Shown: piece after piece, positions 4,210-35,978 of the stretch
Layout of the letters: each line of letters starts with the position of its first letter
Numbering within the stretch: the stretch's first letter is position 1
Assembly: GCA_045837725.1 (NCBI GenBank)
Contig: JBEWZL010000276.1
Span: 372,001 to 436,000, forward strand
Direction: 5' to 3'
Length of the DNA stretch: 64,000 bases
DNA from: Vermamoeba vermiformis
Lineage: Eukaryota
Translations under genes and position numbers: made by a program
The notes under the pieces: generated by a model
What the model was told of the DNA's origin: nothing
Seen by the model: the letters and a program-made list of their open reading frames with translations, nothing else
Database searches by the model: none

Positions 4210-7200
4210 ATGAGGTAAGAACTCAGTTCCGTTGTGCACAAACTTTGAAAAATCACCAATGTATATGAAATTTGTAATTGTATAATAATATAAGCGGCAG
4301 ATTTGCGCTTAATATACGCCCGATGGTTAAATGTAATTTTTGTAACGGAAAAAAAATAATATTTATTATTGATCTCCCTAATTATAAATAATTAATCAAT
4401 TATTTTATAGCGACAGCGTATATTTAGTTGAACCAACATCCGGATGGGTGTTTGAGGACGGAACGGAATTCGATCGAGAACATGCACCGGACATCTACCA
4501 TGCACCCGTAATTGAAAACAAAGAGCTTGATACGCTTTGGTACTCTCAATATTTTGCATCTCAAGGTACGATTATAATATTACATTTCTTTTTCATTCGT
4601 GCGATGCTAAATTAAGAGCGATCATGAACTTAGGAAATCCGCCGAAAGAAAATAATCAGTTTATTTATCAAACCATTTTATTAACATTTTTATTATTTAT
4701 ATAGAGCATCAAAATTATCTTGGCATCGATGAAAATTATGGACCGTATGCGTTGTCGGTGAAAAAAGAGGAGTCGAATAAACAATATAGAGCTATATTAT
4801 GGCTGAGCGAGGTAATAATAATAATATTACGCATTAATGTTCTAATAATATGCGCATTGAATATGAAATACAGTGAATCAAATATGTGAATTAATATTAA
4901 TTGCAATTAACTCGTGCAGGGCGCACAGACATTACTCATTCCATTAAAAGAAGCAAAACAGACAATAGGACCGAGCGATATATTAAAAAAGATGAATCCT
5001 AATCTCAGAAAGAAACTACGGATAGTTACAGAACCAGAAATCCAAAAGGAGTTAATTTCACTAGAAGAACAAACGAGGGTAAAAATAGAACATTAATGCG
5101 CATTTGAGCGGCTATTAATAGCATCATATTTGAAGGCTAAGCGGTATTACTCGTTTGGTGTATTATATGCCCGCAATGGACAAACACGCGAAGAGGAAAT
5201 GTTCCGAAATAGTAAGTTACAATCTCTCAGTATTATTTATAGCTTGTACTTATATAATATTACAAGGGACGGCAAGCCCCGAGTTTGACAAGTTTCTGAG
5301 TTTATTAGGCGATAAAGTAACGCTGAAAGGATGGAATAGATTCGCGGGAGGATTGGACCTAAAAAGTATGGAGTTGAAGAGGAGCTATTCGGAGCTGTAC
5401 TAATGATATGAATTATAGGCGATCGATCGGGCAAATATTCCATATTTACACAGTTCAGCGATTACGAGATTATGTTCCACGTCTCAACTTTGTTACCATT
5501 TGAGGAGAGTGACCCGCAGCAGATTGAACGGAAGAAACATATTGGCAATGATATCGTAGTGATTATATTCCAAGACGAAGATTGCAGCACACCGTGGGAC
5601 CCTCTGACAATTTCTTCACGGTTCAATCGTAAGCTTAAAATTATCGCAATTTAATTTTTGTAATACAAGCTAACACGCACGCAGATATTTATGCCATTGT
5701 ACGTCCCGTGCAAGGAGGATATAGGTAAGTAATATGAAGCTAATACGAAGGTTATCCTAACGCATGCCATTAGGGTGAACATTTCAAGGCGTGAAACAGT
5801 CAATCCTTATGGCCCGCCATTGCCGAACCCACCTGTGTTCGAAGAACATGTTTTCAAGACATTCTTGCTCGCCAAATGTAAGATCTAGTTGCCGGTTACT
5901 TATTAATACTAACACTAAATGACTTCTGAAGTAATCAACGGTGAACGAGAAACAATTCGATCAGTGCCTGACTTCAAAACAAGTTCAATTTCACAGTCGT
6001 ACTTGTCGACAATATACAGGAATTATTACCAATCAGCGGGCAAAATCAAGAAGGGACTAGCGAATTCAGCCAGCATGCCTGGCAGTACCAATAACAGCCC
6101 GCCAGCCCAACAGCTGCGGTTCAGCGATCACATGACCCTGTCCCGAAGTGACTCAGGCGGTGTTGTGGCATTTCAATCACAGAACGCCGTGTTTACTGTG
6201 AAACAAATGTTTGAGAACTTTGACAAAGAAATTTTGTGCGCTAACACATGGGGTACGTACAACGAGAGCTCGATCAAAATAGTTTCAAACGCTAATGAAC
6301 ATAACGATAGAAAATCGTATCGTGTTTGGTACTCCGGATGGATTGTATATATTTGACCCCACTCGTGGTGCCTCACTCGACCGACAGATTTACCAAGTGA
6401 ATACGAGGACACAGAAGTACACTCATTACTTGCAGATGAATATTATTCCGCAACTTGGCATTTTGGTAGCACTTACAGGTACGGCCGTCCTGAGCTTAAT
6501 CTTAGTACGACAATAGTGCTAATGTGTTTGAATAGCCAAAGCAGGAATATTCATTTACGACCTGAGCAGCATGCAAGATGAGGTCAATGGTCCGCACGAG
6601 TTCAGAGTGCCTAAAACAAAGAATGTACATTATTACGCCTTGGGCTCGTTCACTAGCGAACAGTCGCTCTTCTTGTGTTGTTGCAGCGGCAAAGAAATTC
6701 ACCTCTATCGCTGGGAGAATGACGCATTTGTCCGCGTGCAGACGTTTGTCATGCCTGATGTGCCGAAGGTCGTGGACTTTTGGGGCGAGAGTCTAGTCGT
6801 TGGTCTGCCTCGCGAGTACGCACTGCTGGACATCAACAGCTCCACGCTGCTCTCGCTGTATCAATGCAAGGGCACCGACATGACACCACTCGACGTCGTT
6901 ACCCTCGAGTCCGAGCTGTTCTTGTGCTTCAACAGTACGTAGCCAGTGTTAGTGCCATGCGAATCTAACCACTCTCTATGATCAGATATGGGTGTGTTCA
7001 TCACCGCCGACGGAAAGAAGTCACGTGGTTATGACATTGTGTGGGGCGCTGTTCCGCATCAATTTGGTACGCTAACTGCGCTATATTAGAGTATTAGACT
7101 AACACTCGCTCTCAGTATATGTATTCCCTTATATTCTAGCCTTCACACCCAAGTGTATTGAAGTCAGGTCGATGGTGAACGGCAGTTTGATTCAGACAAT

Positions 7201-24101: not shown

Positions 24102-26400
24102 TCAGCGGATTTGAGCGACCAGAAACGAAAATATTCCGCTGAAGAATTCGCTGAAGTTGTTTCGACAAACTACGAATGACTTGGCGTGTTTGTTTTCTTT
24201 CTTATCAGGCCTGTCACTCACAAACTGATTCGTCAAGTAGACGAAGAAATTGTTTTTCAATGCCACAGGACTGCTTTCTGCCATTTGTTGTTCTCTCGTA
24301 CACGCACTATTTGAGTTGCCAACAGATGTTCCGTGAGCAATTGTTGAAAACTTCAAATGAATGGAGATGTTGTTCGGTAATAGAAGCAGCGCATCTTGGT
24401 GCAGATCCGTCTTGCCAACCCAAAAAGCGATCGGTACGTGCTTCCTGATATCTTCAAATGTCTTCGGTATCACTCCTTTGGTCTCCACGTGGTGAAAGGA
24501 CGTCAAATTTGCAGCTGTGTGATGAATAATATTGATAGTCTTCTCGCCGATCTCGAAATTTCCCGTTACATCATTCGCCATCCACGCTCCTTTGAAAAAC
24601 TCTGCAATATCGATCACTTCGAACTTCGTCTCCACGAATAGATTATATTTCAGTACGAGGAACGAGAGACAGAACTGTTCGAAAGTTTGGTCGTCAAATG
24701 TTCCGCACAAGCAGAGATCCGCGTACGTGACGAATATTTTCCGATAAACGTTCTCTTTGTGCAAAGACTTAACTGAATTTCGCAGGAAGATGAGCGGAAT
24801 AAAAAACTCGTTTCTCTCTCGCGTAAATAATCTTCCGTCGTAGGTGAGCTCCATCACCACATTTAAAATCTCCGGCTTTTTCCAGCGCAATAATATCATC
24901 CAAAGTCCATCTTTGTACCATCACTAACAAAGCTGCGTGCAATTGCTCCATGGGTATCGTCCACCTTTCAACTTTCTCGGCAAACACGTCACACATGTTG
25001 ATCACGGAGCTGGAGGACGTGAACGGTGATGGATCGTTATCGAGCTCCTTTGAAAAGAGTTCCCACACACGCGGAATATTTCCAATCAACTCTAACAGCG
25101 CGGCAATGTTCGGTGAATCAAAGATCGTGCTGAGCGATGGGTGTTTCGATTTAAGCAGTGCAATGCCATCAGCTGGAGTTAATGGATCGAATTGGATGGG
25201 ACTCCACTGATACCTTGTCTGGGCCAGTAGTGTTGTCGAGTGTAACTCAAATGTACCAGTGAAGAGGTTGAAAACTGCGGCGTTGTAGGCTGCAGCGTTG
25301 ACCGTGAACTCCATCGCGGATGTTATGTACTTGTAGATAAGGCTGTTTTGACGAGTTTCGTTATTCAGGCTGCGAGAACTGTTGTGGCGTTGTTAATGTT
25401 TGCATCTCGTCGTGCCCGGAAAGTATTAAGAATGGCTCGTCATCGCGTATTTTCTGCACTATTCTGATGGCTTGCAGCAATATTGCGGGTTCCAGGAAAA
25501 GTTTCTCGAGACGAGTCTGACGAATCGCATTCAGCAGACTATTAATAGTAACGCCGTTGAGGCGCTGCTCATTTTGCTCTTCTAATAGCAACTGTGATGC
25601 TATGGCAGCACTTATATAGAGGCGTACGTCTGTTTCATCTGATTTCACCTGCTGACCATTAAACTGTGGGATCCAAACTCGCAAAACGCGGTGAGAGGCG
25701 AGAAATTCTGCAACTTCCGGATATTCCTAAAAATAACGTTATTTTAATGATACATGAGCGTTGGCATTCTTACTGTGGGATGTTTGCTAATATAATCGCG
25801 AAGATGTTCCAGCAAGAAATGATTAAAAAACGTTTTACCAGATCCTGATCCGTTGAATATGCAAGGAGCAGACCATTGCTGCGTTATTGTATGCTCTTGG
25901 CTCAAGGAGCCTTGAATTTTAGGCCGTTTCAACCGCTGCAGAATATCGAGAAGATTGTTTAGCGCGGATTTGCATGCAGCATCGCGCGGTGCCGTAGCAC
26001 GTTGGAAATAGCGCGCTTCCGAGCGCTCAATACTGGTATATTGTACTTGTTTGACAAGGAATATTAAGGCTTCTGTTGAAACAGGTGTCAATATAATAAA
26101 TTATTTCAGAAATAAAAATAATTGATGTTTATTTTGGAATATTCACAAAATAATCTATCAATTTAAGCATAAGTGTTAGTGCCAACTTTTGTTTATAAAA
26201 ATCCAGATCTAAATCCGGTACCTAAATTAACAAAATATCTGACCTGGATTTTCGGCAAGGGCGAGAGTAGCAAAGTCTTCTGCCAAAGTTTTATCCTCCA
26301 TTAGAATGGAGCTTGGCGGAATGACGATTATCTGGCTTGTGGTGCTTGTTTACTCTACCCAAAAATGGCGGTTCGGTCGAACTTTATCCATATCTGTCAT
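24102..26400 (-). pseudogene. Crinkler/RHS (CR)-type effector: P-loop NTPase + restriction-endonuclease-like C-terminus, interrupted as assembled
   Basis: Walker A NGSGSGKT, Walker B-like LILSGHDEMQ, IGNIPR, FFIPLIFL, FEQFCLSFLVLK, QDALLLL...HLK and VVCRNNFSEFF. Two +1 frameshifts (~25378, ~24865) and an in-frame TAA (26350-26352) in a degenerate N-terminal ...QIIVIPP segment. A downstream ATG at 26301 is possible. Confidence 0.65.
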
Positions 26401-26565
26401 TTTGCTAATACACGTGAATTATTTGCCCTATCATTACGATCGTAAGCAAGGGAATGTAAGTCTCATCAACGGACTTGTTTTCAGTTTAACAGAATAATCG
26501 CAGAATTCAAGGTGTTTAAAAGTCAACCGTGTAATTTTTGTTTATTTTATTTTGTATTTACACGT

Positions 26566-29500
26566 ATGGCTACTCCTAGCCAATTGAAGTTATCGGAGCT
26601 CATCTTGCGATGCTTCATCGAGAAGAAGAAGCGATTCGCCAAGTTTGACGTTGTCCGATCTGTTTGTGTCGAGTTGGCCAAAGAAGGCAACATTGATTTT
26701 GTATTTAATGCTGTTGATTTTATGCGAAATGATTTGAATTTATCAACTGCAAGCAATTTTTTACTGGCCGTACTTTGTAACACCGATGAGTTTGACAAGG
26801 CCATCCGAGCCCGATTAATGAATTATTTCCAAATACCAACGGATGTAATTGAAATATTAGATTTTTATCAAGCTGGTATGTAACTAATTTGAATTTATTT
26901 AATTAATTTATTTTTCTACGAGACGTTATGTGATTCCTTCTAACGTGTTCATAGATCCACAGCGTAAGAGTGCTGAAGGAGCCTTTCCTGCTTGGATCCG
27001 TAAATTAGTCGTACGGAAGTTTGCTGAATTTACGGTTGACGATTTCGGAAAGTACTTGAACGACAAGGCGATCAAAAAGAAGTATAAGAAGAAGAAAATG
27101 AAGCTCTTAGGGTAATTGAGCTATTTGTTGGCGAACACTATATTTCTGACACTCGATCCAGCATCAAGAAGAAGCCTAAGGCACCCAAGCCAAAGCCCGG
27201 TACTATTACTACGCGAAAGATCAAGCCGCGCGAGAAGACCCAAAAGGTACCTGGCTTGCGTATTCCGATCACGTGGTTCTATTTGGTCAAGAAATTCCAC
27301 ATCACCGAGCCTCAAACCAACGTCATGGCCGTGTTAGGCAAACGATTTCCTAACAGCGAAGAAGAGTTGAAGCGAAGGTAAGACGTCATTATATATGCAG
27401 CTCTTACTCACGATCACGTGGCAGTGGAATGAAAGGTCAGTTCTTTCCCTCGATGGCAAACAAGCGCCTCAAATTTGCCAAGAGACCCAAGTTCCGAAAC
27501 TACGACGAACCTAAGCGCGTGATGAAGTTGAGCAAGTTGTTAGAACAGTTCCCGTTCATCAACAGCTTGATCACGCTCGGTGAATTGATTCGCACGCAAG
27601 TCAAAGAACAAGAGCGCGTGGCCAAGTTGCAAAACACCAAGCAGTTCCAGAACTTGATCTCGTTGAAGAATTACGTGCCCAAGTCACCGCAACTCAAGCA
27701 CGCAGCTATCACACGATTGATTGCTGATTGGCGCGAAGTGTTGGAGAATCCATTGCCGTACATTTCAGCCGAACCGCTCGAAGACAACTTCTTTGAATGG
27801 CACTGCAACTGTACGTAGTCAAGAGATCTACAACACTACTAGCGGTATTAACGTATAATGCTATCTAGTGCGAGGACTCAACGACGCTTTCAGGGATGTG
27901 TCATTTCACTTTATTATGAAGTTCTCGAGGTACGTGTGTTAGACGTGCTTGTGACGTTGTATTGAACATGTTTTATTGCAGCACTTATCCGAACACGCCT
28001 CCTGCGGTCATTATGTGCACGCACTTGTTGCACCCGAATGTGATCAAGATGACTCGTGGCGATCGATCCACTGAGAGCTTCGTCTGCTTGGACATGTTGA
28101 ACTCTCCCGCCAAGACTTCACGAATCTCTGAGAAAGTTGACAACATAATTACGAGCGGTGGCTGGAGTCCTGCATACTCAGTGCTCTCAATTTTGATGCA
28201 ATTGCAAAGTAAGCTGACGGTTACAGTTTATTCATGCACTAACACGTCTCAGCCTTCTTGCAAATCGATTACAACGAGCACAATCTGCTTAACAACCCCT
28301 CACAGACTCTCGACATGAACGAGTGCATTCGCCGTGCTCGTACTTATTGCTGTCCTGTCTGCCCTCACAAGATGAACCACCCTTCACCAGCCTATCGTAG
28401 CAAGCCTATGAAGAAGAAGCAGCAAAAGGTCGTCGTTCAAGTGCCCGTTCTGGATCAACCTCAACAAAAGGTAATTACGCGACAACAGTACGTTATTAAG
28501 CTAATCGTCTTGACAGGCCGAGACTACTAACACCACAGAGTACGGATGGAGTGAGAAAGCAGATGTCATCATCGAAGCTAACCGAGCTAAGATTTGCAAC
28601 TTTATCATTAACGTAAGTATATTTCAATATCTTAGTAGACACTTCCTGACACGTGGTATATAGGGCCACACGTTTGCTGCTCCCGAAAACAATGTTGCAC
28701 AACCCGCTGTTGACGAGGAACCAGAGGACTTGAAAGTACTTACCTTGAGCGTGGATGAAGAAAATGAAGTGTCACTCGATGCGCAAGCCTTGGAGAACAT
28801 GGGCATGTTTGGTGCGGTGCCGTATGAAGTCCTCTTGGCCATGGCTGAAATCCTGCCGCCCTCTGCCATTGGTGCATTAGGCCGCTCTTGCCGCGAACTC
28901 CGTCGCATTGTGAACGGTAAGTTTAATCAGAGCTGTGATGTGTCGTTGGTTGGTCTAACATGTGCACTAGACGGCTGGTTGTGGAAGCACATCTTTTCGT
29001 TCTATTATCCCAAGAAAGATGTCTCTGTGGCCACCATGGACGACTGGAAACACGCCTTTGCCCTCGAAGTCAATGAAATTCCGCGCGAGTTAACCTGCTT
29101 CTACACCAAGCAATCTTTCAAGCAAGACGTGCTCGGCTATCCTCTGTTCTACACGATCAATCCTAGGTACGTTTGTGCACTTCTAACCACTGTTAAGCCC
29201 GACTAACACGCGTGGTGCAGAACTCGTTTAGTGGACTACATCACCTCGCCTCTCGAGCTACTCTCAGCCACGGCATTCTACCAGCACAAGGTCCGTCGCA
29301 GTGTGTGGCGCGAACAGTTCACTGACTGGCTGCCAATCTACATCAGTGAAGAACACTTTGAGCGTGGCTTGCCGTACATGAAGGTACGTGACTAGAGACG
29401 CACAATCGAGCCAAAATAACACTGCCTTTCCTGTACAGTCATTGTTCATCAAGTTGTGCCCTCAATACAAAGACACCACCTTCAAGCCCGAGATGGCTGT

Positions 29501-31234
29501 TGACGCGTTGTGCAAGTTGATGAACACCATGTCTGTGCTCATCGCTGACAAGGGCTTGCACGGTAAGACCCTATATTTTCCCTTAACTAAATATTCTTTT
29601 ACTAACACTGTACGTTTATTAGCCTCCACCAAGGCCCTCGAAGGTTATTGCGCCTTCCACCGTTTGTTGATTGCATTCATTCAGCGCTACCCCGAATTGA
29701 ACGACTACATCATTGGCGTCATTGACAAGTTTGTCGCGTCAGAAGAAGGACGACACAAGAACGTCATTCCTGCCCTCGGCAACTTCTTGCCGTTGTTAGC
29801 CGTGCAAGAAAAATATCAATGGCACCAAGTCGCCAAGGCATTCTTGTTCGAACAATTTGATCGCAACGTGCTCTGGATCTGCAACAAGTACCCAGAACTG
29901 CTGACCGTTGAACAGCCTGGCAAGTTGAACGATCAGTTGCGCATTGACAAGAGCTTCCAAGCCACGACTGTCTCCATGCGCTTGTTGATGTTCCAAATCT
30001 TCTTTTTGACTCGCGTAAGTAGCAATCCAAAAACACGCGCCGCCTATCCGGAAACTAATCGCCAATCGGTTGATGTAGATTGGTCGTCCTCGCAACTTGT
30101 CGATCAGTCAAATCGCAGCTAATTACGATGTGTTCTATGGCTTGCCACCTCATTCTTCCAAGATGAAGTTCTTGCAGCACGCCAAGAGACTTTTTGCCGT
30201 GGAACAGATCACGTACGACATTAACGCGTTGATATATATTTGCACGAGTACTAATATATTATCTCAGCGATGTCTTGTACAACATTGGTGCTCGTGGCAA
30301 TGAGTTGACTGAAGCACGATTGGCTCGTTGGTTGCGCGACTGTGTTGGCAATTCATTGAGAAAGGGTTATCATACTAGTACGTGCTCTTCGGCCTCGATC
30401 TTTCTTAACACTCGCGCTGATATTGCTTATTGTTGCAGATAAGACAGGCTTTGGCAAGATGGGTCGTCACGTCTCGGTCATTTTGCAACAAAACGAGTCG
30501 TATATGATTGAAGCTGCCAAGGTGAAGAACTTGCGCTTTGAAATCACGTACAGCTGGCAGGGTGCTCGTGTTCACCTCGATGCTGGCTGGATCTTGACGT
30601 CGAGCGGCGTTGCTTATATGTCCAAGCTGTTCAACTACAGTCCAAGCTATAACTACAGATATTACACCTACGAAGAAGCACTTGCCTTCCATGCCGAAGG
30701 CACGCAGACCTTTGATCACCAACACCGAGGCGAATCCAGTTTCAATGTATTCTTGAACAACATTCCAAATGCGGTCGATGGTATCTTCTTCACTATGTGG
30801 TATGTTATAGTCGGTCTAATATCATTTTGACGCCTTCTGACTTGCGGATGTAGGTCTTCGCCGTACTATGACTGGCGTCATGAACAGATGCACAACAGCC
30901 TCAGCTTCGCGAGGGACATCAAAGTGACTGCAGTCGATGTGACCAATCCCGACATGCCTAAAGCGTTGTGTCAGCTCACTTTCAAGCCAAAACAAAAGCG
31001 GCCGTTGACTGACGGTGCTGTGTTCTGTCGATTACGTCGTGTCAATCGTGACAACAAATGGGCGGTAAGTTTAAGGGTCATAATTAGTCTATAGTCATAT
31101 ATTAATGTTCAATCAAACAGTTATCGACTTTGGTGGAAGAGGTGAGTTGTAAGGACGACGACGATGCTTACTACTTGCTTTACGACCGTGTAAATGAAAT
31201 TGTAAAGAAAGAGAACAACGTCAAGGGTAAATAG
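26566..31234 (+). CDS. Multidomain fusion: TEP1-type TROVE + ubiquitin-conjugating E2 + F-box + uncharacterised domain + TerD-like domain
   Basis: TROVE-like FMRNDLNLSTASNFLLAV, QIPTDVIEILDFYQ, FPAWIRKLVVRKFAEF, FHITEPQTNVMAVLGKRFP. E2 motifs RLIADWREV, NFFEWH, YPNTPP, HPNV...VCLDML, GWSPAYSVLSILMQLQ. F-box VPYEVLLAMAEILPP...LGRSCRELR...WLWK. TerD-like SWQGARVHLDA, FNVFLNNIPNAVDGIFF, AVFCRLRR...W. The junctions checked splice in frame. Confidence 0.75.
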
Positions 31235-31393
31235 AGTTGACAGTACCATGTCACAAATAAAGCATCACAGCCGGTACTTCCGGTTAAATGAGAGTGTTGG
31301 CCAAAATAGTTTTTGCATTATTTTAGTCTCATTGTATGAAAGACTACCACTCCCAATAATTTGACTGCTTATAAAATGACTGTATAATTACAA

Positions 31394-34300
31394 ATGAAAG
31401 GTAAGTACGCCTTCGGTTGGAAATACGGCAAGATCTGATCGGTTTTATTTTTTAGCAGCGGCATTGATATTTTTGGTTGTGCTTTTATTGCCGTTTATAA
31501 AAGGTAGTAAAAATAATTATGCATTTTATTCGTAAAACTTACGATTTAATTCAGCGTGTATGTCGGATGTATTTAGTTTGCCAACAGCAGTGCACGGATT
31601 AGCCTCAGCAGTGGTAGACGATACAATTTATTTTGCTGGAGGAGCTACTGGAGGCTGGAATATTCAAACTCCCTTGGATCATATCGACATCTACAACACA
31701 ACTTCAAAGACATGGTCGCAAGATCAGTTAAGCATTCCGAGGACTTATTTAACGCTATCAAAAGTCGGTCATAGACTAGTTTTTGCTGGCGGTGCCTCAC
31801 GACTAGGCGATGGACCAGCGCTGCCTTCAACGCGCATTGACATTTTTGACACGTTAACACGCACGTGGTCCACACTCGAATTGAACGAACCAAGATTTGC
31901 CCACGTGGCAACGACATACGGAGACAAAGTTTTTGTCGCTGGCGGCTTGGTGGAGCTCGGTGGCTCAAATATGATTACAGTGGACTCCGTCGAGATGATA
32001 GACCTCGCGACCAACAACGTGAGCATCATTTACAGAATGACCACGCCCAGATACGCCCAGTCATCGGGCACTGTCATGGACGTCGTCTTCTTCGCGTCTG
32101 GCCGTCACCGAATCAATGTCAATGTGCCCGAAGTGTTCATGTACAACGTCACCGCGAACGAGTGGCGTGTTGAAATGTTGCCGCTGGCTCGCACGTACAC
32201 TTCAGCAGCTGTGTACGGCAAGAAGATTTACATTGCTGGCGGATGGGTTCAAAACTTGATCGCGACAAACAGAGTTGACATATTTGACATTGAGACGTGG
32301 CAGTGGAGCGACCCAGTTCTGTTGGAATCGGCGCGCGGTCTCATGTCCGCTGTAGTCTTAGACACGAAGATTTATCTCGCTGGCGGCATTGGTGTCCTGT
32401 TTGAATCACTCGTGGACGTGATTGATGCCGAGACTGGCGAGCGACTGTCAATTCGATTGAAAGAACCACGTGCCATGATGACAGCACCCACTGACGGCAA
32501 ACGAATTTACTTCGCTGGTGGACTCGTCAATGAATTCTCCAACTCAGATGTGATCGAAGTGTTTGACTCGCACGGCATTATTGATGAAATAGACATGCCT
32601 CGTGCTCGAACAAACTTCGCTAGTGCAACGGCCAATCAGCTCGTCTTCTTCGCTGGAGGCACATTGAGCGATGGAAGTCGCACGGACTCTGTGGACATTT
32701 ACGACGAGCGAACCGAACAATGGCTTCGAAGCACGACTTTCAGTACCTCGTGCGGGCAGTCATCTCTGCGGTGCTTGGTCCTCGAGTGTTCTTCATTGGT
32801 GGCGTTGACAGCGCGAATAATTCGGTAGCAGCAATTGACATTTACAACACTTTGACGCGCCAGTGGACCACCGCACAACTGTCTCAAAGCAGAGTCCAAT
32901 TCAGCGTAGTGACTGACAACACGAGCTTGTACATTGCAGGCGGTGCATTGATCTTCGGCGATCGAGCTTCACCCGTGTCAGACGTGGTTGACATTTACGA
33001 CAGCAGGACGAATCGCTGGACCACAGCTAAGCTGAGTGCTGCACGCTCAAGAGTGTCTTCATTCGTGCACCAGTCAGTCGTGTTCTTTGCAGGAGGATCA
33101 AGTGAATATAAAATGAACGACGAAGTGGACATTTACGGCACTATCACCAACACCTGGACCGTGGCTCGATTGCGCATTGGACGTGCGGCCATTGGAATTG
33201 GTGCGGTGCTCAATCAGGTGGTGTTCGCAGGAGGACTACTCTTTGACGACTTTTCAACGCGTGCTATGGATATTTACGACACAACCACCGGTCAATGGAG
33301 ATTTTCACAGCTGACAGTCCCGCGCTTTGATCTTTCAGTACTCACCTTCAGCAATTACTTGATCATTGGCGGTGGCATTGGAAACTCCGTGGCGACAGTT
33401 GTCGAGGTCTACAACGCCGACACTGGCGTGCTCACGGACTCGAGAATTCTATTGACTAGGCACAACACGCTAGTAGTAGCGATGGGCAGTACATTTATCT
33501 TTGCCGGTGGATTCTTCATCAGCGGAGGCAGAGAGCGATTGGCACAGTCGAGCGCGATTGAAGTGTTCGATACCAACTCAGCTGGTGCGTTCTCGAGCTA
33601 TTTTTTGAGCAAAAACATCACCTGGAGGCACGCAGTAGTGTCGCACAACAAGATTTATTTCAGCGGCAACGACTACGCCAAGATGAACGTCATGGTGATG
33701 CCTTCGATGGAGCGATTGTTAGCCAGTCAGCAACAGTTCTTAGGAAGACAAGTGACGTTCAACGCCACAGTCCTGGGACGAGGCATCACCTACTCTTGGA
33801 CGCACAATGACGAGCGAATAGCAAATGTCACGGGCTCGAGCTACACGATCGACGAAGTGACCACAGACTCTAATGGCCTGTACACGCTCACTGCTGTTGA
33901 CATGTGTCGCAATCGAGTCCTGTCCTCTGCTCAGCTCGAAGTGTTAATTGCGCCCACATTCGCTGAAGCCACTCTTCAAGACACAGTCGTGCTGTGTGGC
34001 AGTTCGGTGACGTTGAGCGCACCTGCTCGAGGAGTCGACGTTCAATACGAATGGTACTTCGATGAGCAGCAACAATTCAACTTCAGGCACGACATGACAG
34101 TCCAAGCCCCTCCAAGCTCTTGTGATGCCAGCCATCGTGTGTGCATCATAGCAACTAATCCTGCGGGCGCGACTGCAATGTGTGCCTTGCTGCGAATGTC
34201 TTCGTACAACAACGTGTTTGACGGTCCGACTGTCGCTAACAACAGACCTTCGTGGCTCTTAGGCGACAACGCGGAGATTTCCGTGAATCTTCTCGATCCT

Positions 34301-35978
34301 CTTTGCACTTCACACGAGTGGCGCAAGAACGGAGTCGTTGTGCAAACTGAGACCGGCACGAAGAGCACCCTGGTCGTGAAAGTCGGTTCCAGCACTGACT
34401 CAACGACCTACTCCGTTGTTGCTTACTGTGGTGCCCCTGTGGAGTCACGCCCTGTCAAGCTGGATGTGGTTTACTTGTATTGGTGGGGTGTGCTGCTCAT
34501 CGCTCTATCCTGCGCTGGTGCAATTGCTGGCGGCATCGTGGCATTTGTGCAGATCCGCAAACGATTCCAAAACAAACAAGAGCGCGAACAAGAGTTGAAA
34601 GAGCTGCTAGACGATGCTAAACGAGCGGTTATTAATACATCAAGCACCACCGACTCCGTGATCAATGTGCGCAGGTGGGAGTGGATCCCCGATGACAATT
34701 ACCGCTACGTACCGGTGTCTGACTTGCCGTTCGCTATCGACACGACCAATGTGCTCTTCTTGAAGAAAAATCAACAATTAGAGATTGGTATTTGCATGCA
34801 AGGCGATATGATCTTCGCGTTCAAATCGACCAAGAACAGCAAAACACCGTCATCCCTCAAGGAAAAGCTCCTGAGGCGGTCCATGCAAGTCTCAATTTAT
34901 CCTCCGCGCTCGCCCAAGTATGAAATGACCGTGGACCCGCAACACTTCGCCATTGGTCCTGACGATGAAGTGCGCGTGCTCGTGTCACTGACGATGAAAA
35001 TGACGACCAAAGCGAAGATCAACTTGATCATTGGACTTGAAGAACAGGAGCTCTATTCGGCCATCGAGTTCAATGTGGCCAGTAAAATATCACCGTGGAT
35101 TGACGCTGATGAAGTCATTATCCAAGGAGATCCGATTGGCATGGGAGGGTACGAATCCAATTTAATTTCAAGTTTTTGTAAGCTTTACTTACGTTCGTCT
35201 ATCTAGATTTGGCACGGTCTCGAAGGCTACTTATAGAGGCCAAGAAGTTGCTTTCAAGAAGTTGCGCGTACAGGAGCTCGATCCGTCAGCTAAAATTGAG
35301 TTCGAACGCGAAATTGATTTGATGATGAATCTGCATCACCCTAATATCATTCAATTCATTGGTGCCTCTCGCGTCAAAGGATCTCTCGCCATTCTGACTG
35401 AATTTGCACCGCTCGGCAGTCTCGAATCCAGTCTGAAGAAAAAACGGCTCAATTTGCACCAGCAGATTATCGTCTTGTACGAGGCCGCTAGAGCGCTGCA
35501 ATTCCTTCACGCGAATAATATTCTGCATCGCGACATCAAGCCTGAGAACCTCCTCGTGTTCTCGTTGGAAATTTCAGCGCCCGTGCACGTCAAGCTAAGC
35601 GACTTTGGCACTGCTCGCTTGGTATCAGATCAACCAAGTACAATGACCAAAGGAGTAGGAACACCACTCTATATGGCCCCTGAATTGTTTGGCAAGCAAG
35701 GTTACTCGCGCAGTGCTGATATATACAGCTTTGGAATGCTCATCTGGTCCGTCATGCATCAGCAAGAGCCGTACGACTCATCCGAGTTCCAGTTCCCGTG
35801 GGACGTACCAAACTTTATCAAAGCAGGCAATCGTCTCGCCATTTCAGAGGAGATATGTCCTGCTGATATCGCGCAGCTCATACGCGAGTGTTGGCAACAA
35901 GAGCCAGTCGATCGACCGCAGATAAGTCAAGTCGCGCAACAACTCGCAAATTTCCTGAAAAATATTGGTAAATATTAG
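31394..35978 (+). CDS. Receptor-like TKL kinase: signal peptide, ~14 kelch repeats, 3 Ig-like domains, TM, juxtamembrane domain, kinase
   Basis: Signal exons MKAAALIFLVVLLLPFIKA. Repeated hh-F-AGG...DIYD...W....LS.PR. Ig-like YSWTHN...GLYTLTA, YEWYFD and HEWRKNG. TM WWGVLLIALSCAGAIAGGIVAFV. Kinase HRDIKPENLL, DFG, GTPLYMAPE. Two +1 shifts at ~32725 and ~32755. Confidence 0.85.

Follow-up and report, generated by a model that had tools for sequence, protein, structure and literature searches.

Within a 64,000-nucleotide stretch of the Vermamoeba vermiformis genome (positions 372,001 to 436,000 of contig JBEWZL010000276.1, assembly GCA_045837725.1; hereafter the window), we analysed the spliced gene found at 26566..31234 on the + strand, the strand that carries all of its features described below. 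Our reading, which we hold with somewhat better than even confidence, is that this locus amounts to a single gene encoding a self-contained ubiquitin ligase, in which a ubiquitin-conjugating enzyme (E2) and a UBR4-like ubiquitin ligase (E3) module are joined in one chain, with a TROVE and a TerD domain as target-selecting ends. The gene belongs to a widespread, uncharacterised family of proteins made of an E2, an F-box, a UBR4-like module and a TerD domain, of which it is the TROVE-bearing form particular to this lineage.

One Spliced Gene from TROVE to TerD

The model built from the coordinates starts with the ATG at 26566 and stops at 31232-31234; its 18 exons and 17 GT-AG introns give an open coding sequence (CDS) of 3729 nt, that is, 1242 codons plus the stop, for a protein of 1242 aa. 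Intron lengths are 44-79 nt, most introns having a CTAAC/CTGAC-like branch site, and the host genome is a eukaryotic one with short introns. Using exon 13 as the query of a word-index search, we retrieved P0001, a relative of 1184 aa, and P0002, another of 1009 aa; the model shares 83% identity with P0001 and is colinear with it across all 17 exon junctions. The 90% cluster of P0001 counts 18 members, including P0055 and P0057 (1236 aa each, on contigs of 3788 and 3787 nt, respectively), which align from residue 1 to 1236 with residues 1-1242 of the model at 83% identity, the MATPSQ start being common to the model and P0055; three further members sit on contigs of 2883-3699 nt. As the orthologue CDS of 3711 nt is found on contigs of 3787-3788 nt, against 4669 nt for the window gene with its 940 nt of introns, the lengths imply that these contigs must be spliced transcripts of a close relative, with TROVE through TerD in one frame. 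An earlier note, made from this DNA alone, had proposed a single spliced gene rather than a locus split between several transcripts. The open CDS with its 17 introns, colinear with P0001 and aligned end to end with P0055 and P0057, bears this out, and the spliced contigs of that relative do not divide the locus; they hold it from TROVE to TerD in one open reading frame (ORF).

Public reads mapped on the locus gave splice joints for 10 of the 17 introns in the X7 contigs. In these contigs, which are 95-99% alike, introns 2, 4, 5, 7, 10, 11, 12, 13, and 14 are absent from joints placed at the model coordinates, and intron 15 has the same 61-nt length, shifted by one base; one contig of 718 nt connects the middle domain with the TerD exon. 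Raw RNA reads from three runs (90-95% alike, hence from a relative) have introns 11, 13, and 14 spliced, and intron 12 with an approximate joint, two letters standing between. For introns 1 and 6, the mapped reads gave approximate joints only, with replaced letters, and for introns 3, 8, 9, 16, and 17, no joint was seen in mapped public reads.

Intron 3 lies at the TROVE-to-E2 junction, where read depth is only 0.2-0.6, and its joint was not seen because RNA reads are too few there. One could thus imagine two adjacent genes merged by our model, a short TROVE gene stopping at the TAA that opens intron 3, then an E2 ligase gene with Met230 as its first residue: left unspliced, the intron ends the frame immediately (27379-27381), with an ATG further on at 27429. 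Such a pair is extremely improbable in our eyes. In P0055 and P0057, a single ORF extends from TROVE to TerD, and their 3.8-kb contigs have no space for introns; the Pfam TROVE match crosses the junction to residue 246-247 in exon 4, an exon that runs on into the UBC domain; and the two putative genes would be just 47 nt apart.

Three observations concern the reads themselves. One X7 contig (depth 5.5) has 5 extra, frame-shifting letters behind 27777, inside the E2-coding exon 4, which could stem from misassembly or from the way the contig aligns close to the intron 4 joint. At 26592/26660 and at 27543/27648, opposite strands are joined by reads of run X22 (3 at each place), most likely library chimeras. 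No RNA run turned up with the exact sequence. RNA runs X21-X23 bear the same species label as the best DNA match and are only 90-95% identical to the window over 26300-31500, so their label covers a strain or species other than the one sequenced here.

The Middle Domain: A Predicted UBR4-like Fold

Between the F-box and the TerD domain, the earlier note had placed a long, conserved-looking domain of unknown nature. A conserved middle domain is indeed present (29087-30361), and it need no longer be called unknown, its predicted fold being that of the UBR4 hemiRING-UZI E3 module, at Z 22. The fold was predicted from a 396-residue fragment of P0035 with a 38-sequence family alignment (model m3654fa5bda3d; predicted local distance difference test (pLDDT) 90.9, predicted template modelling score (pTM) 0.88). 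Foldseek found only two matches to this model in the PDB at E<=1e-3, with a probability of 1.00: the UBR4 E3 module 8b5w (1.1e-5) and the UBR4-UBE2A complex 8btl_A (6.1e-5). VIA-align, run over 48,161 representative chains, gave Z scores of 22.1 for 8btl_A (UBR4 4833-5183; 299 residues, root-mean-square deviation (rmsd) 4.1) and 10.4 for residues 1218-1654 of yeast Ubr1 with Ubc2 (7mey_A, 262 residues), all other chains being at 4.5 or lower; a second comparison gave 22.5 for 8b5w, 22.1 for 8btl_A, and 10.4 for 7mey_A, then 4.7. The UBR4 matches extend over 296-299 residues at rmsd 4.0-4.1.

The domain is divided into a RING/U-box-like subdomain with an incomplete set of zinc ligands (29087..29338, aa 681-746) and a helical UZI-like subdomain (29348..30361, aa 750-1009). 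Residues 59-122 of the P0035 model match many RING/U-box domains (Z about 4, rmsd about 2 Å, 45-52 residues) and also the UBR4 hemiRING. According to the UBR4 study (PMC10873205), the UBR4 module sets a hemiRING with one zinc inside a UZI bundle of 11 helices; the hemiRING serves to bind UBE2A/B, the module mildly activates E2~Ub, and UBR1-3 are predicted to hold a similar RING-UZI module. From this study and from PDB titles, the UBR4 and Ubr1 modules both bind Rad6-type E2s. The middle domain would, by its modelled fold, have the shape of an E2-binding E3 module. An ESM Atlas lead (0.84) to the ARM region of FBXO47 was not confirmed, no PF24467 being found among the 25 families listed of the 48 matched by Pfam in 38 family members (E<=5).

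The Built-In E2

The same chain contains a UBC core (27717..28263, aa 326-456; Pfam UQ_con, PF00179), with an HPN motif at 28031-28039 (aa 394-396) and, within VCLDML, the catalytic Cys412 (28085-28087), retained in nearly all relatives aligned. UQ_con matches the orthologues P0001 and P0055 at E 1.6e-16 and an unspliced ORF piece of the window with 36.2 bits; in general, unspliced pieces of the window score lower in Pfam because introns cut the domains. The UBC core is followed by CCPVCPHKMNHP, a knuckle of the CxxCxH type (28348..28383, aa 485-496), and this pattern recurs in most relatives (consensus of family alignments A3 and A5). The E2 with its HPN and catalytic Cys, as well as the Cys/His motif behind it, are about where the earlier note had seen them. 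Two peculiarities of the window E2 are an 8-residue insert between HPN and the Cys and a loop insert after the Cys. Its best sequence matches in the PDB are Rad6/Ubc2 (E 8.7e-12) and UBE2G2 (E 4.7e-11).

We compared the window protein with P0001 part by part. The RING-like and UZI-like subdomains are the best conserved domains, with 97% and 90% identity; values are 92% for the linker, 88% for TROVE, 84% for both the E2 and the F-box, 65% for TerD, and 53% for the C-terminal helix. These figures bear on the idea that the E2, the RING-like module, or both are inactive in this lineage and that the protein works through binding, in the manner of a decoy or an adaptor. Such a pseudo-enzyme or regulator would agree with the long branch of the lineage in the family tree (0.85), with the HSGD motif lost in TerD and two His positions lost in the RING-like part (see below), and with the 8-residue insert ahead of the Cys. 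We nevertheless regard it as decidedly improbable, as HPN and the catalytic Cys are intact and as the RING-like and UZI-like parts are precisely those that changed least.

The F-box and Its Place in the Ligase

The F-box-like domain (28811..28996, aa 607-650; Pfam PF12937) is split by intron 9, which is why the window ORF with this intron retained reaches only 20.1 bits; on P0001 and P0055, it scores E 2e-8 and 34.3-34.4 bits for a cutoff of 24.3, in agreement with the F-box claimed earlier. In the P0035 fold model, residues 1-57 match the F-box regions of beta-TrCP1 and Cdc4 (Z about 4), and an F-box-like domain is detected in 27 of the 38 family members scanned.

With an F-box above the Pfam cutoff and so common among relatives, the protein might be a substrate receptor of the Skp1-cullin-F-box (SCF) type with a tethered E2: the F-box would link it via Skp1-Cul1-Rbx1, Rbx1 would activate the E2, and the middle domain and TerD would merely hold the substrate. 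As a rule, F-box proteins hold their substrate with the part that follows the F-box, and a loop insert after the catalytic Cys is a feature of SCF-linked Cdc34-type E2s; the E2 of the window has such an insert and aligns through it with UBE2G2. We find this reading unlikely. The RING/U-box-like subdomain and the UZI-like bundle match an E2-binding E3 module at Z 22, and P0019, P0027, and P0044 have the E2 and the middle domain with no detectable F-box. Given the UBR4-like fold of the middle domain, the protein is better read as an E2-E3 fusion than only as an SCF receptor. The earlier note had put ubiquitin conjugation at the centre, and the E2 being confirmed, this part remains; its picture of an F-box receptor with an E2 attached gives way to one that includes a UBR4-type E3 fold.

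The TROVE Region

The N-terminal part of the protein is a partial TROVE domain (26647..27482, aa 28-247; Pfam PF05731), within which lies a Lys-rich insert (27074-27246, aa 144-184). On P0055, residues 28-246 match positions 46-275 of the 442-position profile (E 6.3e-15, 55.7 bits for a cutoff of 23); P0001 scores E 2.1e-13 and 50.7 bits, and exon 3 of the window alone E 7e-4 and 19.3 bits. The TROVE region announced by the earlier note is thus found above the curated Pfam cutoff in orthologues of 83% identity, as a partial match without a vWA domain; together with TerD, recognised by profile and fold, each end of the protein has its match. Residues 1-262 of P0001, used in a word-index search among proteins of 651-2072 aa, found only P0001 itself, and exon 3 of the window against PDB sequences gave nothing useful. 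Among the 38 family members scanned, TROVE was present in 1, and it was found in the window lineage only.

Ro60 and TEP1, which share this domain, bind Y, vault, or misfolded RNAs. In the window lineage, TROVE could instead be a remnant kept as a protein scaffold or linker without an RNA role, the gene being no more than the form that the E2 + F-box + E3-module + TerD family takes in this lineage. The match to only about half of the profile, the Lys-rich insert, the missing vWA, and the rarity of TROVE in the family all go in this direction, and TerD and parts of the RING-like site are likewise decayed in the window lineage. On the other side, TROVE keeps 88% identity to the relative, no less than the 84% of the E2, which places it under constraint like the enzyme parts; the Lys-rich insert would favour contact with nucleic acids; and a distant member, P0044, independently gained S1 domains. 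We take the remnant seriously, with more doubt than belief.

An RNA link can also be pushed much further. In a single-chain, RNA-directed ligase, TROVE would capture structured or misfolded small RNAs of host or viral origin, the E2 and the module would ubiquitylate the proteins riding on them, and the fast-evolving TerD, devoid of its motif, would offer a second recognition surface shaped by conflict; the family would then be an unrecognised class of ligases, in which an E2 is fused to a hemiRING/UZI-like module and gated by TerD or vWA sensors coming from bacterial Ter-type systems. The conservation of TROVE at the level of the E2 and the S1 domains of P0044 were counted for the RNA link; as a whole, this scenario seems to us quite unlikely. 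The recognition of ribonucleoproteins and the role in defence suggested by the earlier note may apply to the ligase that we prefer.

The TerD-like C-terminus

The C-terminus comprises a degenerate TerD-fold domain, recognised by profile and fold (30377..31141, aa 1015-1212), and a last helix (31142..31231, aa 1213-1242; residues 202-225 of model mb0437140411e). A direct Pfam TerD match (PF02342) was found neither in P0001 at E<=1 nor in the window exons at E<=0.1, and P0011 and the C-terminal profile gave nothing useful against PDB sequences. For the C-terminus, the ESM Atlas gave a lead to TerD clusters (0.88). A HMMER search of 1.84 billion representatives, made with a C-terminal domain profile, yielded 10 matches at E<=1e-3. 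Three of them cover the whole domain, P0008, P0011, and P0012 (E 1.1e-5, 4e-4, and 6.5e-4), and all three are Pfam TerD-positive above cutoff (8e-18, 9e-12, and 6e-14); two others are exon fragments of close relatives. The remaining five (P0005-7, P0009, and P0010) are giant LVIVD-repeat proteins, repeatedly covering only about 105-177, and were judged spurious.

In the reverse direction, a profile of 23 canonical TerD domains of the family (the first 12 columns of which belong to the preceding domain) scores 63.5 bits on residues 1003-1212 of the spliced window protein. The AlphaFold2 model of the P0001 C-terminus (pLDDT 78.2, pTM 0.81) had 7 Foldseek matches at E<=1e-3, five of them TerD or TerD homologue entries, including 3ibz, 2qz7, and 2kxt (E 8.8e-9 to 1.8e-5 for the TerD entries), and VIA gave Z scores of 13.3 to 2qz7_B (160/169 residues) and 12.1 to 2kxt (164/174), the next being 4.7.

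The TerD-like character put forward earlier is thus upheld by profile and fold, with two reservations: no direct Pfam match and the loss of HSGD. This motif, a presumed metal or ligand site, is present in 23/23 canonical TerD rows and is replaced by AEGT in the window, QHGT in P0001, and QNGT in P0003; TerD of the window lineage also has two insertions. Calcium binding by TerD is known to us from the title of PDB 2KXT alone. TerD would be the C-terminal domain that the family had ancestrally; in the window lineage, it is decayed and fast-evolving. The low identities at this end (30377-31231; TerD 65%, helix 53%) reflect either relaxed constraint or diversifying selection.

A Widespread, Uncharacterised Family

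The core of the protein extends far beyond Vermamoeba. Over 633 residues, from the F-box up to where TerD ends, P0008 (694 aa) and P0001 are 34% identical (E 4e-125), and the window protein matches P0013 by blastp at E 3.7e-116 over 604-1209, in addition to an E2 match. A profile search found 36 family proteins among the 8000 candidates that it scored. Named sources are Planoprotostelium fungivorum, Arcella intermedia, Chytriomyces, Podochytrium, Physocladia, Zopfochytrium, and Dactylellina, to which unnamed transcriptomes are added; all these proteins are labelled hypothetical or "UBC core domain-containing". In the 38 members scanned, UQ_con was detected in 24 and TerD in 21.

The ends of these proteins vary, with a vWA domain at the N-terminus (P0032), in place of TerD (P0041 and P0043), or along with TerD (P0031); in P0044, S1 RNA-binding domains separate the E2 from the E3 module and stand in place of the F-box. 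The pairing of TerD and vWA in relatives echoes bacterial proteins of the TerF/TerY type.

We built a tree of the middle domain from 34 rows, leaving out fragments that cover less than 280 residues and, in addition, P0003, P0004, P0011, P0012, P0039, P0042, P0045, and P0046, and rooting it at the midpoint only. The window protein and P0001 lie together on a long branch (0.85), sister to a group of 23 rows, mostly TerD-bearing (support 99/96). The five-domain architecture, which the earlier note did not recognise, is thus special to the lineage as far as the addition of TROVE is concerned; the core of E2, F-box, E3 module, and TerD is widespread in amoebozoans and chytrids.

Proposed Mechanism and Points Against It

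In the self-contained ligase that we propose, an E1 would load ubiquitin onto Cys412 of the built-in E2, and the RING-like/UZI module would dock on the E2~Ub and activate it in cis, on the pattern of UBR4 and UBE2A or of Ubr1 and Ubc2. The F-box would tie the enzyme to Skp1, with or without a cullin. TerD and TROVE would choose or gate the target, TerD as the ancestral C-terminal sensor or recognition domain, and TROVE, in this lineage, by supplying the ligase with small RNAs, whether structured or misfolded, or with their proteins.

Apart from the unseen joint of intron 3, several points weigh against this proposal and have to be kept in mind. One is that the biochemical steps are inferred from the domains, be it the binding of RNA and of Skp1, the activity of the E2, or its docking on the E3 module in cis. 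Another is that the fold model is that of P0035, 38% identical to aa 633-1015 of the window protein, and not of the window protein itself. The C2HC zinc ligands of UBR4 (Cys4838, Cys4841, His4887, and Cys4890; PMC10873205) are not kept in the family, which has no CxxC at this place; only one Cys (28/29) and one His (29/29) are near-universal in the RING-like part, and two further His positions (22/29 and 14/29) are Tyr and Asp in the window lineage. No UBR4 family is found among the same 25 listed of the 48 Pfam families matched by the 38 members at E<=5.

On the E2 side, the sequence ties between Rad6 and UBE2G2, and of the trio Arg7/Arg8/Arg11 of UBE2A that UBR4 reads (PMC10873205), only the Arg8 position is kept; the details of docking, if docking occurs, must therefore differ from those of UBR4-UBE2A. 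A complex prediction between the E2 and the E3 module of P0001 (residues 262-450 and 596-958) scored 0.21 against a mark of 0.34 and was run with no controls; we count it neither for nor against. On a simple SCF model, an F-box beside a built-in RING-like module is redundant. As to TROVE, the match spans about half of the profile (46-275 of 442) and is interrupted by the Lys-rich insert, and Pfam finds no vWA in P0001 or P0055, so that the Ro60-type arrangement of a full TROVE followed by vWA is absent; a closed, Ro60-like ring and RNA binding are therefore uncertain.

Surroundings of the Gene

The upstream neighbour is on the opposite strand, in divergent orientation, with ORFs at 24102-26100 (-), and a Kelch-repeat gene starts downstream near 31536 (+); the gene at 26566-31234 is thus well bounded. 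The upstream ORF pieces are long and include a P-loop-like GSGSGKT motif; four of them at 24102-26100 had no Pfam match at E<=0.01, and the gene may encode an uncharacterised NTPase. Downstream, two large Kelch-rich ORFs occupy 31536-35206 (+); the second adds Ig/PKD-like stretches and a hydrophobic segment, which give it the look of a surface protein. Across the whole 64-kb window, neither a tRNA nor an Rfam family at gathering score was found, a result that is silent on RNA binding by TROVE.

Significance and Comparison with Known Systems

Our literature searches found no description of this architecture; an earlier mention of eukaryotic TerD fusions is possible in the 2012 work on Ter systems by Anantharaman et al. 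Among the publications searched, none names TerD and the TROVE domain together, and the co-occurrence of the two in bacteria, given as established by the earlier note, could not be confirmed. The part of a survey of ubiquitin-system architectures available to us (PMC4327156) does not mention a fusion of E2 and F-box. In a 2026 survey of the human ubiquitin system (PMC13015453), hemiRING-UZI is assigned to one protein, UBR4, and two E2-E3 fusions with an intrinsic E2 are counted.

What sets the present family apart is a module of the UBR4 fold placed in one chain with an E2, after an F-box and before TerD, in proteins of both amoebozoans and chytrid fungi. Should the E2 and its module cooperate in cis, the family would provide a compact natural system for the activation of an E2 by a UBR-type module and would reveal a new route of bacterial Ter-type sensors (TerD and vWA) into eukaryotic ubiquitin signalling. 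TROVE here and S1 in another member would make a link from RNA to ubiquitin testable with one recombinant protein.

The closest known proteins are those of the uncharacterised family itself, such as PROFUN_04561 of Planoprotostelium fungivorum (PRP81326.1). They are true homologues with the same order from E2 to TerD; they differ in having no TROVE and in keeping HSGD, the window lineage forming a long, separate branch. With Ro60 and TEP1, the window lineage shares a TROVE scoring above the Pfam cutoff; it differs from them in its restricted profile match and in the missing vWA/MIDAS (metal-ion-dependent adhesion site) domain.

The likeness to bacterial TerD and TerF (2KXT, 2QZ7, and 3IBZ) lies in the fold, with Z scores of 12-13 and Foldseek E values down to 3.6e-6, and in the relatives P0031, P0041, and P0043, where vWA takes the place of TerD or is added to it, mirroring the Pfam entry "vWA found in TerF C terminus". 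Unlike these, TerD of the window is part of a eukaryotic ligase, has lost HSGD, has gained two insertions, and escapes the Pfam TerD model. UBE2O and BIRC6, which we take to be the two human E2-E3 fusions, resemble our protein in their working mode and not by descent, a UBC domain being built into a large ligase chain; they are without the RING-like/UZI module, F-box, TROVE, and TerD.

The fold of the middle domain leads to yeast Ubr1 and to UBR4. The RING and cap-helical domain of Ubr1 with Ubc2 (7MEY) is the only other strong fold match (Z 10.4), and the UBR4 study relates Ubr1 to UBR4 as a "RING-UZI" module (PMC10873205); Ubr1, however, has a full two-zinc RING and a separate E2, and the match is weaker. 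UBR4 is only 11-12% identical to the family module, whose C2HC ligands are absent; in the window protein, moreover, the E2 is in the same chain, the F-box precedes the module, and there is no UBR box or giant scaffold. The UBR4-UBE2A system (8B5W and 8BTL) has the same arrangement as our family: a RING-related subdomain that bears a long beta-loop comes first, packed against the helical bundle that follows it.

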